Assembly (NCBI RefSeq): GCF_053078305.1
Contig: NZ_CP166879.1
Length of the DNA stretch: 64,000 nucleotides
Reading direction: 5' to 3' (one strand)
In this document: positions 17,569-26,483 of the stretch, piece by piece
Layout of the letters: every line of letters begins with the position of its first letter
How positions within the stretch are numbered: position 1 is the stretch's first letter
Notes under the pieces: generated by a model
The model's input: the letters and a program-made list of their open reading frames with translations, nothing else
Told to the model about the DNA's origin: nothing
The model's database searches: none
Made by a program: the position numbers and the translations under genes

Positions 17569-20268
17569 ATGCGTAAATATCCTTTAAGTTTACTGAAGGA
17601 TAAAAATATTGTGACTTTCTTTGATTTCTGGGGAAAAACCCGACGCGACGAGAAAGAAGGGGGTGACGACTATCACCTTCTTTGCTGGCATTCGCTGGAT
17701 GTGGCCGCGATGGGCTATTTAATGGTTAAAAGAAATTGCTTCGGGCTGGCTGATTATTTTCGTCAATTAGGGATTTCTGACAAGGAACAGGCGGCTCAAT
17801 TTTTCGCCTGGTTGTTGTGCTGGCACGATATTGGAAAATTTGCCCGCTCATTTCAGCAACTTTACCTGCACCCACAACTCAAGGTTCTGGAAGGCGCAAG
17901 AAAGAATTACGAAAAGATCTCTCATTCAACGCTGGGCTACTGGTTGTGGCATCATTATTTAAGTGAATGCGAAGAATTGCTTCCTGCCTCTTCACTCTCT
18001 ACTCGCAAACTTAAACGTGTAATAGCGATGTGGATGCCCATGACTACCGGGCATCATGGTCGGCCCCCTGACCGTATTGATGAACTGGATAATTTTCTGC
18101 CTGAAGACAAAGCTGCCGCACGAGATTTTCTCCTTGAAATCAAGTCACTGTTTCCGCTCATAGAGATTCCCACATTCTGGGATGATGACGAGGGCGTTGA
18201 ACTTTTAAAACAACTTTCCTGGTATATCTCTGCAACAGTCGTACTCGCAGACTGGACGGGTTCGTCAACGCGATTTTTTCCACGCGTCGCACAGACAATG
18301 AATATTAAAGATTACTGGCAGAAAACTTTAGTTCAGGCTCAAAACGCCTTAACCGTCTTTCCTCCAAAAGCAGAAACCGCACCTTTCACCGGAATTAATA
18401 CGCTGTTTCCTTTTATTGAGCACCCGACACCATTACAGCAAAAGGTACTGGATCTGGATATCAGCCAGCCAGGGCCACAGTTATTTATTCTGGAAGATGT
18501 GACTGGCGCAGGTAAAACAGAAGCGGCGCTTATCCTGGCGCACAGGTTGATGGCTGAGAATAAAGCTCAGGGTTTGTTTTTTGGCCTGCCAACAATGGCA
18601 ACGGCCAATGCCATGTACGATCGGCTGGTCAAAACCTGGCTTGCTTTCTTTTCGCCAGAATCCCGCCCCAGCCTGGTGCTGGCACACAGCGCCCGTACAT
18701 TAATGGAACGCTTTAATGAATCACTCTGGTCCGGTGATTTAGTCGGGTCAGAAGAACCGGATGAACAAGCGTTCAGTCAAGGATGTGCAGCCTGGTTTGC
18801 CGACAGTAACAAGAAGGCTTTACTGGCTGAAATTGGCGTCGGCACGCTGGATCAGGCGATGATGGCAGTGATGCCGTTTAAACATAATAATCTGCGGCTT
18901 CTGGGGTTGAGTAACAAAATCCTGCTGGCTGATGAGATCCACGCCTGTGACGCTTACATGTCGTACATTCTTGAAGGGTTGATTGAGCGACAGGTGCGTG
19001 GCGGAAACAGCGTCATTTTGCTTTCTGCTACGTTATCTCAACAGCAGCGCGACAAACTTGTCGCCGCCTTTGCGCGTGGCACAGAGGGCCAGCAAGAAGC
19101 TCCGTTCCTGGAAAAGGATGATTACCCCTGGCTGACGCATGTCACGAAATCCGATGTGCATTCGCACCGGGTAGCGACGCGCAAAGACGTTGAGCGTAGC
19201 GTGAGCGTGGGTTGGCTTCATAGCGAACAAGAATGTATTGCGCGTATCGAATCAGCGGTAAGTCAGGGGAAATGCATCGCCTGGATCCGGAATTCTGTCG
19301 ATGACGCTATTAAGGTTTATCGTCAGTTACTTGCCCGCGGCGTCATTCCTGCTTCCAGCCTTTCACTTTTTCATAGCCGCTTTGCTTTTAGCGATCGCCA
19401 GCGAATTGAAACGGAAACGCTGGCACGCTTTGGTAAAAATTGTAGTTTAAAAAGATCATCTCAAGTCATTGTTTGTACACAAGTAATTGAGCAAAGTGTG
19501 GATATTGACCTGGACGAAATGATCTCCGACCTGGCCCCCATTGATTTGCTGATCCAGCGAGCGGGGCGATTACAACGGCATATTCGTGATATTAATGGTC
19601 AGTTAAAACGTGATGGAAAAGACGAGCGTTCCCCTCCTGAATTGCTGATTCTGGCCCCCGTCTGGGACGACTCTCCGGGTGACGAATGGTTTGGTAGTGC
19701 GATGCGTAACAGCGCATATGTCTACCCCGATCATGGGCGAATCTGGCTGACGCAGCGAGTATTGCGTGAGCAAGGCGCTATTCAGATGCCACACGCAGCC
19801 CGGCTTCTTATTGAATCCGTCTACGGTGAGGACGTGGTAATGCCGGAAGGATTTGCCCGCAGCGAGCAGGAGCAAGTGGGCAAATATTACTGCGATCGCG
19901 CAATGGCTAAAAAGTTTATGCTGAACTTCAGGCCCGGCTATGCCGCCAATATCAACGATTACCTCCCGGAAAAGCTGTCGACACGTCTGGCTGAAGAGTC
20001 TGTTTCCCTGTGGCTGGCTACCTGTATTGACGGTGTGGTGAAGCCTTATGCCAGCGGTGCTCACGCATGGGAAATGAGCGTTGCCAGAGTGCGTCGAAGC
20101 TGGTGGAAAAAACATCGGGATGAATTTTCTTTACTGGAAGGGGAAGCGTTCAGGCAGTGGTGCATTGAACAACGGCAAGATCCGGAGATGGCAAACGTGA
20201 TTTTAGTCACCGATGACGAAAGCTGCGGGTATTCGGCTACGGAAGGATTGATTGGCAAGGTTGATTGA
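17569..20268 (+). CDS. cas3: Cas3 helicase-nuclease (type I-E)
   Basis: 899-aa ORF; N-terminal HD domain region, DExH helicase motifs (GAGKTEAAL, DEIH). Confidence 0.95.
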   Translation: MRKYPLSLLKDKNIVTFFDFWGKTRRDEKEGGDDYHLLCWHSLDVAAMGYLMVKRNCFGLADYFRQLGISDKEQAAQFFAWLLCWHDIGKFARSFQQLYLHPQLKVLEGARKNYEKISHSTLGYWLWHHYLSECEELLPASSLSTRKLKRVIAMWMPMTTGHHGRPPDRIDELDNFLPEDKAAARDFLLEIKSLFPLIEIPTFWDDDEGVELLKQLSWYISATVVLADWTGSSTRFFPRVAQTMNIKDYWQKTLVQAQNALTVFPPKAETAPFTGINTLFPFIEHPTPLQQKVLDLDISQPGPQLFILEDVTGAGKTEAALILAHRLMAENKAQGLFFGLPTMATANAMYDRLVKTWLAFFSPESRPSLVLAHSARTLMERFNESLWSGDLVGSEEPDEQAFSQGCAAWFADSNKKALLAEIGVGTLDQAMMAVMPFKHNNLRLLGLSNKILLADEIHACDAYMSYILEGLIERQVRGGNSVILLSATLSQQQRDKLVAAFARGTEGQQEAPFLEKDDYPWLTHVTKSDVHSHRVATRKDVERSVSVGWLHSEQECIARIESAVSQGKCIAWIRNSVDDAIKVYRQLLARGVIPASSLSLFHSRFAFSDRQRIETETLARFGKNCSLKRSSQVIVCTQVIEQSVDIDLDEMISDLAPIDLLIQRAGRLQRHIRDINGQLKRDGKDERSPPELLILAPVWDDSPGDEWFGSAMRNSAYVYPDHGRIWLTQRVLREQGAIQMPHAARLLIESVYGEDVVMPEGFARSEQEQVGKYYCDRAMAKKFMLNFRPGYAANINDYLPEKLSTRLAEESVSLWLATCIDGVVKPYASGAHAWEMSVARVRRSWWKKHRDEFSLLEGEAFRQWCIEQRQDPEMANVILVTDDESCGYSATEGLIGKVD

Positions 20269-20297
20269 GATGCCCTGGCGTCGGATGACGCCAGGGC

Positions 20298-20321
20298 TTA
20301 TCCCCGCTGACGCGGGGAACA
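20298..20321 (-). repeat. Solitary CRISPR repeat-like sequence, inverted relative to the arrays
   Basis: TTATCCCCGCTGACGCGGGGAACA matches the reverse complement of the array repeat (TTATCCCCGCTGGCGCGGGGAACA) at 23 of 24 positions; preceded by an 11-bp-stem hairpin at 20272-20297. Confidence 0.7.
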
Positions 20322-24641: not shown

Positions 24642-25273
24642 CCTTACATACCGCTCAGCTTTTGCCTGCGCAGTTGCTGCATCTGGTGGATCGCGGTGAA
24701 TATGTGATGCATCAGTGGCTGTGGGATCTCTTCCCTGGCGGCAAAGAAAGGCAATTTCTTTATCGTCGGGAGGAACTTCAGGGTGCGTTTCGCTTTTTTG
24801 TCCTCTCGCAGGAACGCCCGGCGGAAAGTGAAACTTTCACTATCGAATGCCGGTCATTTGCTCCGGAGCTGCGTACCGGACAATCCCTTTGTTTCAACCT
24901 GCGGGCGAATCCCACAATTTGTAAAGCGGGCAAGCGCCACGATCTGCTGATGGAGGCGAAACGGCAGGTGAGGGGACAGGCGGAAGGGCGTGATGTCTGG
25001 TTGCATCAACAACAGGCGGCGCTGGACTGGCTGGCAGCGCAGGGGGAGAGAAGCGGTTTTACACTGCTGGATACCTCGGTTGATGCCTACCGACAACAGC
25101 AACTGCGGCGGGAAAACTCCCGGCAACTGATCCAGTTCAGTAGCGTGGATTATACGGGGATGCTTACGGTCACCGATCCCGGGTTATTTCTGCAACGTCT
25201 CAGTCAGGGGTATGGCAAAAGCCGCGCGTTCGGCTGTGGTCTGATGCTGATCAAACCCGGAGCAGAGGTGTGA
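24623..25273 (+). CDS. casE: Cas6e (CasE) pre-crRNA endoribonuclease
   Basis: 216 aa from ATG 24623 (MYLSRITLHTAQLL...); the track ORF starts upstream at 24485; overlaps casD end. Confidence 0.9.
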   Translation: MYLSRITLHTAQLLPAQLLHLVDRGEYVMHQWLWDLFPGGKERQFLYRREELQGAFRFFVLSQERPAESETFTIECRSFAPELRTGQSLCFNLRANPTICKAGKRHDLLMEAKRQVRGQAEGRDVWLHQQQAALDWLAAQGERSGFTLLDTSVDAYRQQQLRRENSRQLIQFSSVDYTGMLTVTDPGLFLQRLSQGYGKSRAFGCGLMLIKPGAEV

Positions 25274-26193
25274 CGTTTGTACCACTGAGTCCGATCCCGT
25301 TAAAAGATCGCACCTCTATGATCTTCCTCCAGTACGGTCAAATCGACGTACTGGACGGCGCTTTCGTGCTGATCGACAAAACCGGGATCCGCACGCACAT
25401 TCCGGTGGGATCGGTCGCCTGCATTATGCTCGAACCGGGAACGAGAGTTTCCCACGCGGCGGTGCATCTGGCCGCCACGGTGGGAACACTGCTGGTCTGG
25501 GTCGGTGAAGCGGGCGTTCGCGTTTACTCTTCCGGACAACCCGGAGGGGCGCGGGCAGATAAATTACTCTACCAGGCAAAGCTGGCTTTAACGGAAGATC
25601 TACGCCTGAAGGTGGTGCGCAAAATGTATGAATTACGTTTTCGTGAGCCACCGCCAGCTCGCCGTTCAGTGGATCAGCTACGGGGAATTGAGGGATCCCG
25701 CGTTCGCCAGACCTATGCATTACTGGCGAAACAATATGGTGTGAAATGGAATGGTCGCAAATACGATCCTAAAGACTGGGAAAAAGGCGATGTTGTGAAT
25801 CGCTGCATCAGTGCTGCCACATCATGTCTGTACGGTATTTCTGAAGCGGCAGTATTAGCCGCGGGATATGCGCCCGCTATTGGATTTATTCATAGTGGCA
25901 AACCGCTTTCATTTGTTTATGACATAGCCGATATCATTAAATTTGATTCGGTTGTGCCAAAGGCATTTGAAATAGCGGCAAGACACCCGGCAGAATCTGA
26001 TAAAGAAGTCAGATTAGCCTGTCGCGATATTTTCCGTAGCACTAAGTTAACGGGCAAATTAATACCGTTAATTGAGGAAGTCCTTGCTGCAGGTGAAATT
26101 GAACCACCACAACCCGCGCCGGATATGTTACCGCCTGCCATCCCTGAACCTGAAACGCTGGGTGATAGTGGTCACCGGGGGCGCGGCGGATGA
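25270..26193 (+). CDS. cas1: Cas1 integrase
   Basis: 307-aa ORF at the expected position in the operon. Confidence 0.95.
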
Positions 26194-26483
26194 GCATGGT
26201 CGTGGTTGTTACAGAAAATGTCCCTCCGCGCTTACGTGGACGGCTCGCAATCTGGCTACTGGAAGTGCGTGCCGGTGTGTATGTTGGTGATACATCAAAA
26301 CGTATTCGGGAGATGATCTGGCAGCAAATTACCCAACTGGCTGGTTGCGGAAATGTGGTGATGGCCTGGGTGACCAATACCGAGTCGGGTTTTGAATTTC
26401 AGACCTGGGGAGAAAACAGACGTATTCCGGTGGATTTGGATGGGTTACGTTTGGTTTCTTTTCTTCCTGTTGATAATCAATAG
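26190..26483 (+). CDS. cas2: Cas2
   Basis: 97-aa ORF ([33 protein letters not shown]...). Confidence 0.95.

Follow-up and report, generated by a model that had tools for sequence, protein, structure and literature searches.

A rare long-intergenic copy of the Escherichia coli E1-type I-E cas operon with a putative CreR-type mini-array between cas3 and cse1

The cas-E2 system of Escherichia coli K-12 is the experimentally and structurally characterised type I-E CRISPR-Cas system. Another E. coli variant, cas-E1 (the O157:H7 type), was reportedly described by Diez-Villasenor in 2010. Here we examine a I-E cas operon found in a 64-kb stretch of contig NZ_CP166879.1, which as a whole is called the window below and supplies all coordinates. 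The operon occupies positions 17569-26483 on the + strand, and the long gap between its first two genes, cas3 and cse1, holds a short repeat-spacer-repeat element with a candidate target nearby. Almendros et al. 2014 (PMC3903273) described E1 as the primary and prevalent form in E. coli, tied to hok/sok and to CRISPR leader L1, and K-12 as the holder of a minority E2 replacement; hok/sok was present in every strain but those with E2.

Short CRISPR-like elements that regulate cas genes have been described in several systems. In approximately 19% of bacterial I-E loci a regulatory mini-array is found between cas3 and cas8, and it targets the cas8 promoter region beside a protospacer adjacent motif (PAM) (Shmakov et al. 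2023, PMC10120712); we found no mention of E1-type E. coli loci in that paper. The creR element of the Salmonella enterica I-E system represses PcasA 8.6-fold in MG1655 and does so through Cascade, and the repression is relieved by an excess of CRISPR RNA (crRNA) or by AcrIE8 (Li laboratory, bioRxiv 10.1101/2023.03.10.532045). In the CreTA/CrePA addiction modules (H. hispanica I-B; Acinetobacter I-F), a degenerate mini-CRISPR guide represses a promoter that adjoins the cas genes (bioRxiv 10.1101/2024.01.05.574328). From the comparisons given below we hold it very probable that the window combines an intact E1-type I-E operon with CreR-type autorepression by Cascade, guided from the mini-array.

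The eight cas genes, all on the + strand, are as follows (lengths in amino acids, aa).

17569-20268, + strand: cas3, 899 aa, HD nuclease fused to a superfamily 2 (SF2) helicase; NCBIfam cas3_core and cas3_HD.
20719-22281 (alternative ATG at 20713), + strand: cse1/cas8e, 520 or 522 aa, large Cascade subunit; TIGR02547, 610 bits.
22278-22814, + strand: cse2/cas11e, 178 aa; TIGR02548.
22829-23884, + strand: cas7e, 351 aa; TIGR01869.
23895-24641, + strand: cas5e, 248 aa; TIGR01868.
24623-25273, + strand: cas6e, 216 aa, pre-crRNA endonuclease; TIGR01907.
25270-26193, + strand: cas1e, 307 aa, GTG start; TIGR03638.
26190-26483, + strand: cas2e, 97 aa; TIGR01873.

All eight open reading frames (ORFs) scored above the curated cut-offs of type I-E-specific NCBIfam models and followed the I-E gene order, so that the signature set (cas8e/cse1, cse2, cas7e, cas5e and cas6e, plus cas3, cas1e and cas2e) was complete and in order. 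No internal stop was found in any of the eight. A first-pass annotation, made from the letters of the window, had proposed eight intact and tightly coupled genes of these lengths. The intact ORFs and their lengths were confirmed, and the coupling was seen from cse1 through cas2 but not between cas3 and cse1, which are 450 nt apart. The junction gaps, from cas3 to cas2 in order, were 450, -4, 14, 10, -19, -4 and -4 nt; the Cascade and adaptation genes are tightly packed and cas3 is not coupled to cse1. RefSeq places the cse1 start at the second ATG (20719, 520 aa). The mechanically called cas6e ORF opens at 24485 and, because its TIGR01907 match begins only at residue 47, the ATG at 24623 (216 aa) was taken as the real start, as in the RefSeq annotation of the closest genome. 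Antisense ORFs within cas3 (19603-20115) and across cas1/cas2 (26042-26377) matched no family and were taken as spurious.

The operon belongs to the cas-E1 variant that Almendros et al. 2014 (PMC3903273) described. BLASTP against K-12 MG1655 gave identities of 28% for Cas3, 20% for Cse1, 30% for Cas7, 34% for Cas5, 28% for Cas6e, 84% for Cas1 and 85% for Cas2. Cse2 had no significant BLASTP match in K-12, and blastn found no match to K-12 at the DNA level from cas3 through cas6e. All eight proteins were equal in length to those of an O157 genome, with identities of 94.3% (Cas3), 96.9% (Cse1), 83.7% (Cse2), 99.1% (Cas7), 96.0% (Cas5), 97.7% (Cas6e), 99.0% (Cas1) and 99.0% (Cas2), and Cse1 was 96% identical to its E. 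albertii counterpart. These pairwise identities are the basis on which the operon was clustered with O157 and E. albertii rather than with K-12. The typing primer cysH-F matched exactly at 17004-17024, and cas3E1-R matched at 18 of 20 positions on the minus strand (17650-17669). The G+C content of the cas genes was 50.8%, compared with 44.8% for the K-12 operon; it is nearer to the published E1 mean of 53.5% than to the E2 mean of 45.6% (Almendros 2014, PMC3903273), yet below the former. The flanking genes were cysI, cysH, hok/sok, iap, cysD and cysN, with flank DNA 97-98.5% identical to K-12; this identity and the cys/iap synteny show that the window comes from an E. coli chromosome and that the operon sits where CRISPR-I usually does, between cysH and iap.

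With the O157:H7 type the operon thus shares its eight genes and their lengths, the L1 leader, the 29-nt repeat, hok/sok and the cysH-iap site, but its cas3-cse1 gap of 450 nt, with a mini-CRISPR and a target, contrasts with the 97 nt of that type. With K-12 cas-E2 it shares the subtype, gene order, locus and a near-identical repeat, while the Cas3 and Cascade sequences, G+C content and leader type differ, and K-12 has no intact hok, only sokX. Between its cas3 and casA genes K-12 too has a degenerate repeat, together with a partial target beside a PAM.

The cas3-cse1 intergenic region (20269-20718) is 450 nt long with 42% G+C. A repeat scan found one minus-strand copy in it, at 20295-20319, within an arrangement that has the parts of a minimal CRISPR array and, 75 nt away, a candidate target.

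20349-20377, - strand: psiR1, degenerate upstream repeat with a short hairpin (CCCTGATTCTAGGG) and a 5'-handle-like ATTAACCA replacing ATAAACCG.
20323-20348, - strand: psiS, 26-nt spacer-like guide, 5'-AGTTAGTGAGATACAAAAATTGGTTC-3'.
20294-20322, - strand: psiR2, downstream repeat, 25/29 against the array repeat, with hairpin and Cas6e cleavage context kept.
20423-20451, + strand: predicted Cascade/CreR target, PAM ATG at 20423-20425 followed by protospacer AGTTAaTGAGAaACAAAAATTttaaa.
20403-20431, - strand: predicted sigma-70-like promoter, -35 TTAACT, 17-nt spacer, -10 TATCAT, 9/12 to consensus, overlapping the target seed.

Read along the minus strand, the order is psiR1, psiS, psiR2 and then a GC-rich hairpin described below. 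A match like psiR2 was obtained in none of 100 shuffles, and the predicted RNA fold of the mini-array had a z-score of -6.6. Two other readings of the lone repeat, one with the minus-strand spacer placed downstream of psiR2 and one on the plus strand, gave no PAM-flanked target and were rejected.

Targets were sought with a position-aware scan that required a PAM and seed and ignored position 6. The first 21 positions of psiS matched the target at 19, and the two mismatches fell exactly at 6 and 12, positions that are unpaired in Cascade R-loops. The site at 20426 was the only strong psiS partner in the window. Of 20000 shuffled spacers, 87 had a site with PAM and seed anywhere in the intergenic region, and the observed run was reached by 0. 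An exact-substring search for the psiS target returned only a 9-nt low-complexity match. The predicted promoter at 20403-20431, a hit of a consensus scan, could drive the mini-array.

The same arrangement recurs in other loci, where guide and target change together. Across at least ten loci psiS/target pairs co-varied, with the PAM and a perfect seed always kept and mismatches at positions 6, 12 and 18. Klebsiella spallanzanii, Atlantibacter and Chimaeribacter had the same layout with other psiS sequences and a matching target flanked by AAG or ATG; co-varying pairs in the same layout were also found in E. coli strains N3 and TUM14771, a metagenome-assembled genome (MAG), two Salmonella serovars and K-12. 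E. coli strain 135 differed from the window by an A-to-T change at psiS position 15 and by the same change in the target; in its psiR2 stem, as in that of Atlantibacter, there was a compensatory change from C-G to T-A. An element of the psiR1 type was present at the same place in loci L009, L012, L013, L047, L048 and L050, in Salmonella and in K-12. A 6-nt periodicity in psiS length (32, 26, 20, 20) was considered and given up, as Salmonella (22, 33 nt) and other loci (33 nt) broke it.

On this evidence the window element would belong to the known class of CreR-type Cascade autorepressors. The Salmonella sequence that we fetched agreed with its published description (15 consecutive matches, AAG PAM), and the layout in serovar Senftenberg equals that of the window. 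The Salmonella creR and the window element both have a psiR1 that keeps the 5' handle, a psiR2 hairpin, a short psiS and, upstream of casA, a target that has a canonical PAM and is complementary at its PAM-proximal end. They differ in that the Salmonella psiS is 22 nt with 15/15 consecutive matches, whereas that of the window is 26 nt with 19/21; in Salmonella cas3 is divergent from casA, and the Cas3 and Cascade proteins are 34-57% identical to those of the window. The Salmonella creR has been tested experimentally, while the window element is known from its sequence. In the two Salmonella loci inspected (L045, L046) the creR mini-array sits in the divergent cas3/casA promoter region, where subsp. 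houtenae has a RelE/Xre toxin-antitoxin pair inserted. Like the window element, the mini-arrays of Shmakov et al. 2023 (PMC10120712) sit between cas3 and cas8e and run opposite to cas3; both have a short spacer that mismatches its target at every sixth position, and in both this target lies beside a PAM within the intergenic region that holds the element. In their description the upstream repeat is the better conserved one; in the window it is the downstream psiR2, as in the Liu/Li description.

The first-pass proposal of structural competence found support in the intact ORFs and the conserved catalytic residues. In alignments to K-12, H86, D87 and K90 of the Cas3 HD motif corresponded to H74, D75 and K78; the Walker A motif GAGKT (K316) corresponded to K320, DEIH 455-458 to D452-H455, and S486/T488 of motif III to S483/T485. 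Cas1 E141, H208 and D221 were conserved, and Cas6e had a histidine at the position of K-12 H20. Searches with Cse1 and Cas3 found no solved structure near the E1 proteins: the nearest to Cse1 was K-12 CasA, at only E = 5e-14, and the best matches for Cas3 were the Thermobaculum and Thermobifida Cas3 proteins.

The genes are followed by a leader and an array.

26484-26579, + strand: CRISPR leader, L1 type, 96/96 identical to O157 and 67/96 to K-12.
26580-27579, + strand: CRISPR2.1 array, 16 repeats GTGTTCCCCGCGCCAGCGGGGATAAACCG plus one degenerate terminal repeat, 16 spacers.

The 29-nt repeats are partially palindromic and the spacers are 32 nt long with a 61-nt periodicity, apart from one spacer of 27 nt. 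This is spacer 10 (27158-27184), at which the repeat spacing is 56 instead of 61. Two of the 16 spacers matched the phage collection, both imperfectly: spacer 13 (27336-27367) matched the major capsid gene of E. coli phage vB_EcoM-705R4 at 30/32 positions with an ATG PAM, and spacer 5 (26853-26884) matched Klebsiella phage Kp4865-4 at 29/32 with the flank CTG. Most phage and plasmid matches to the array came from mis-filed chromosomal records with CRISPR arrays of their own, where it was the repeats that matched; these were set aside. The spacer 13 match would be evidence of past adaptation, and intact ORFs, catalytic residues and spacer matches together support an operon that is structurally competent. 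A second CRISPR locus, with its arrays on the ygcE/ygcF side, lies near the beginning of the window. One array (12-529) is cut by the window start; the loop variant GCGCTAGC occurs in six of its nine repeats. The other is a degenerate two-repeat mini-array (1031-1120) approximately 500 bp beyond it. They correspond to CRISPR2.3 and CRISPR2.2, respectively, of the E. coli nomenclature.

In the mechanism that we propose by analogy with characterised I-E systems, Cas6e would cut array transcripts into 61-nt crRNAs, on which Cse1, Cse2, Cas7, Cas5 and Cas6e would assemble as Cascade; the complex would bind AAG- or ATG-flanked protospacers and recruit Cas3 for DNA degradation, and Cas1-Cas2 would insert new spacers beside the leader. 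The mini-array would be transcribed in the direction opposite to cas3 and its RNA processed by Cas6e. Most likely the crRNA-like product loads into Cascade and guides it to the ATG-flanked partial site 75 nt away, where Cascade, bound without cleavage, would repress the promoter or promoters there. crRNAs or anti-CRISPRs that titrate Cascade would relieve the repression.

The distribution of the operon was determined among 5426 complete RefSeq E. coli genomes. The window operon had matches in 2792 of them (at least 80% of the query covered in 2408) and the K-12 operon in 1223 (at least 80% covered in 1114). A RefSeq-annotated copy 99.7% identical to the window operon exists, and only 4 of the 5426 genomes were at least 99% identical to it. 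Identity to typical E1 operons was approximately 95% and mosaic, from 83 to 100% per 300 bp, which fits the recombination within E1 reported by Almendros 2014 (PMC3903273). cse2 was the most divergent gene within E1: the DNA at 22300-22600 was 83% identical to O157 and 97% to other E1 genomes, which points to a patch of recombination within the Cascade genes, of the kind reported from some strains of phylogroup B1. In O157 and another typical E1 genome the cas3-cse1 gap is 97 nt, so that the window and its closest relative have an extra block of approximately 353 bp; the two-piece, 95-96% coverage of most E1 matches fits the same gap. The block was present in 6 of the 5426 genomes. Ten more shared only its first 57-104 nt, with two other long types (3 and 7 genomes), and any long intergenic form was seen in 16 genomes (approximately 0.3%, or approximately 0.6% of E1 carriers). 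O157, MY1-8 and E. albertii had no repeat-like sequence outside their arrays.

The identity of the operon leaves little room for two other explanations. That it is of K-12 type, and that the K-12 lengths given in the first-pass annotation (888/502/160/363/224/199/305/94) were wrong, has only the 84-85% identity of Cas1 and Cas2 in its favour and is refuted: all eight lengths agreed with the fetched MG1655 locus, Cas3 and Cascade proteins were 20-34% identical to K-12 or had no significant match, and no DNA match was found. Near-identity to K-12 proteins, which had been named as the outcome that would count against a divergent non-K-12 family, was thus not seen, and identity to O157 was 84-99%; Cse1 is, as had been claimed, homologous to K-12 CasA but divergent from it (20% identity). 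The description of this family as the second in E. coli held as far as it is divergent and already reported, but E1 is the majority and primary form. It is also very improbable that the operon represents a third, foreign I-E lineage lately imported from another enterobacterial genus. The mosaic identity of approximately 95% to typical E1, the scarcity of genomes at least 99% identical (4 of 5426) and a long intergenic architecture common to K. spallanzanii and Atlantibacter might suggest this, but the proteins are 84-99% identical to O157 E1 and equal in length, Cse1 is just 73-76% identical to Citrobacter, Klebsiella and Phytobacter homologues, and the Cas3 and Cascade proteins are only 34-57% identical to Salmonella. 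Moreover, the leader is identical to that of O157 (96/96), the locus position and hok/sok are E1-like and mosaicism within E1 is documented.

A more serious alternative, which we nevertheless think unlikely, is that the locus is a silent relic, an intact-looking operon that is repressed and unused for immunity, in which the mini-array is a decaying leftover of an inverted repeat and regulates nothing. Most E1 loci manage without the mini-array, spacer 10 is of aberrant length (27 nt), phage-collection matches were found for just 2 of 16 spacers and all were imperfect, and PMC10910852 and PMC3903273 describe E. coli I-E arrays as stable and the systems as silent in laboratory conditions. However, none of the eight ORFs is disrupted, the catalytic residues are in place, and at least ten loci have psiS and target sequences that co-vary while the PAM and a perfect seed are kept. 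Co-variation in which PAM, seed and periodic mismatches are preserved is not expected of a dead remnant. Several points weigh against our explanation all the same. The intergenic promoter positions rest on one weak consensus match, and the promoter scan found a number of sites no higher than chance. psiR1 is very degenerate, and processing is assumed for a Cas6e that is 28% identical to the K-12 enzyme. In ECNB21-M121, the closest genome, two bases of the target are substituted on the side away from the PAM, and the PAM preference attributed to E1 Cse1 comes from few cases. Finally, the same two papers (PMC3903273; PMC10910852) describe E. coli I-E as generally silenced by H-NS and its arrays as slow to change. 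Autorepression by Cascade from the mini-array remains the reading that we prefer.

The intergenic region contains three further features besides the mini-array and its candidate target.

20273-20296, no strand assigned: GC-rich hairpin CCCTGGCGTC-GGAT-GACGCCAGGG between the cas3 stop and the mini-array, from sequence and predicted fold.
20535-20675, + strand: small ORF, 46 aa, MLSIFLLQLVLSLLSKRQTKF... (MLSIFLLQLVLSLLSKRQTKFDF...), with a Shine-Dalgarno-like AAGAGGA and a hydrophobic N-terminus.
20685-20706, + strand: small hairpin GACCA-GGGA-TGGTC followed by TTTTCTAC, directly upstream of the cse1 ribosome-binding site, a terminator-like match.

The stem of the first hairpin was kept through differing sequences in loci L009, L012, L013, L048 and L050, and no clear U-tract was found on either side of it. 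It may form the 3' end or terminator of the cas3 mRNA, of the mini-array RNA, or of both. The hairpin before cse1 has a CCA-NGGA-TGG core that was kept in all E1-type loci inspected, those with the 97-nt region and those of Klebsiella, Atlantibacter and Chimaeribacter included. This hairpin may serve as an attenuator or terminator, or it may be a protein-binding palindrome. An Rfam search of the intergenic region and arrays found nothing, and the only Rfam match was to sok.

The 46-aa ORF had no homologue and no Pfam or NCBIfam match. It was present only in intergenic regions of the window's type and was identical in two related E. coli regions, with no signal of selection either way. A role for it as a toxin or a leader peptide is pure speculation. 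CreTA/CrePA likewise have a small ORF just downstream of the target; that the predicted ORF of the window is a hydrophobic toxin repressed by Cascade, which would make the cassette CreTA/CrePA-like, appears improbable. Another small ORF, of 32 aa, is conserved in related loci and absent from the window. It reads MEEKxxRxKRLFCRLMIRLGNKLSVSFQLSVR, has a Shine-Dalgarno sequence and ends 52-57 nt before cse1 (L009 2513-2608; L048 1815-1910; L012 7845-7940; L026 7878-7943; L050 4001-4099). A hand count of codon differences between K. spallanzanii and E. coli TUM14771 gave 14 synonymous and 8 non-synonymous. The family had four representative clusters among 1.8 billion proteins, with no Pfam or NCBIfam match and no family annotation. 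The 46-aa ORF was considered as a member of this family and rejected, as tblastn found no similarity.

Upstream of cas3, the hok/sok module that is a hallmark of E1 lies intact between cysH and cas3.

17082-17239, + strand: sok antitoxin RNA, Rfam RF01794, 111.7 bits against a gathering score of 59.
17224-17376, + strand: hok toxin gene, 50 aa, Pfam HOK_GEF E = 5.7e-10, annotated as Hok/Gef in the closest genomes.

In ECNB21-M121 an IS421 element lies between hok and cas3; the window has no such insertion.

Relatives of the E1-type Cse1 were found in Gilliamella from the bee gut (42-46% identity) and, over almost the full length, in Methanosarcinales/Methanoperedenaceae archaea (36-40%), a distribution that suggests possible inter-domain transfer of the E1-type I-E lineage. 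One Cse1 that was 97% identical to that of the window came from a 7-kb contig assigned to a MAG of the actinobacterium Collinsella sp. This contig also has the 97-nt intergenic region typical of E. coli, and most likely it is Escherichia DNA that was binned wrongly.

The operon itself is already known and ordinary, being annotated in RefSeq and of a type described since 2010-2014. What is added here is a rare long-intergenic copy of E1 that keeps a CreR-type mini-array, a further member of a described class. We see about an even chance that this locus is among the approximately 0.3% of complete E. coli genomes that keep a working CreR cassette (mini-CRISPR, target and promoter region), and that the common E1 type, including O157:H7, lost the cassette by a deletion of approximately 353 bp. 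If so, the Cascade genes of common E1 strains would be without their own regulated promoter and without the feedback that senses crRNAs and anti-CRISPRs. What is known of the mechanism and regulation of E. coli I-E systems was nearly all learned from the minority K-12 (E2) type. Among the loci inspected, E2, Salmonella and a few rare E1 alleles have a CreR-type mini-array, while O157, MY1-8 and E. albertii have none. Natural pairs of isogenic-like strains, one with the long and one with the short intergenic region, would allow a direct test of how far CreR feedback and a dedicated Pcas promoter contribute to the expression and silencing of Cascade, and to autoimmunity, in wild E. coli.

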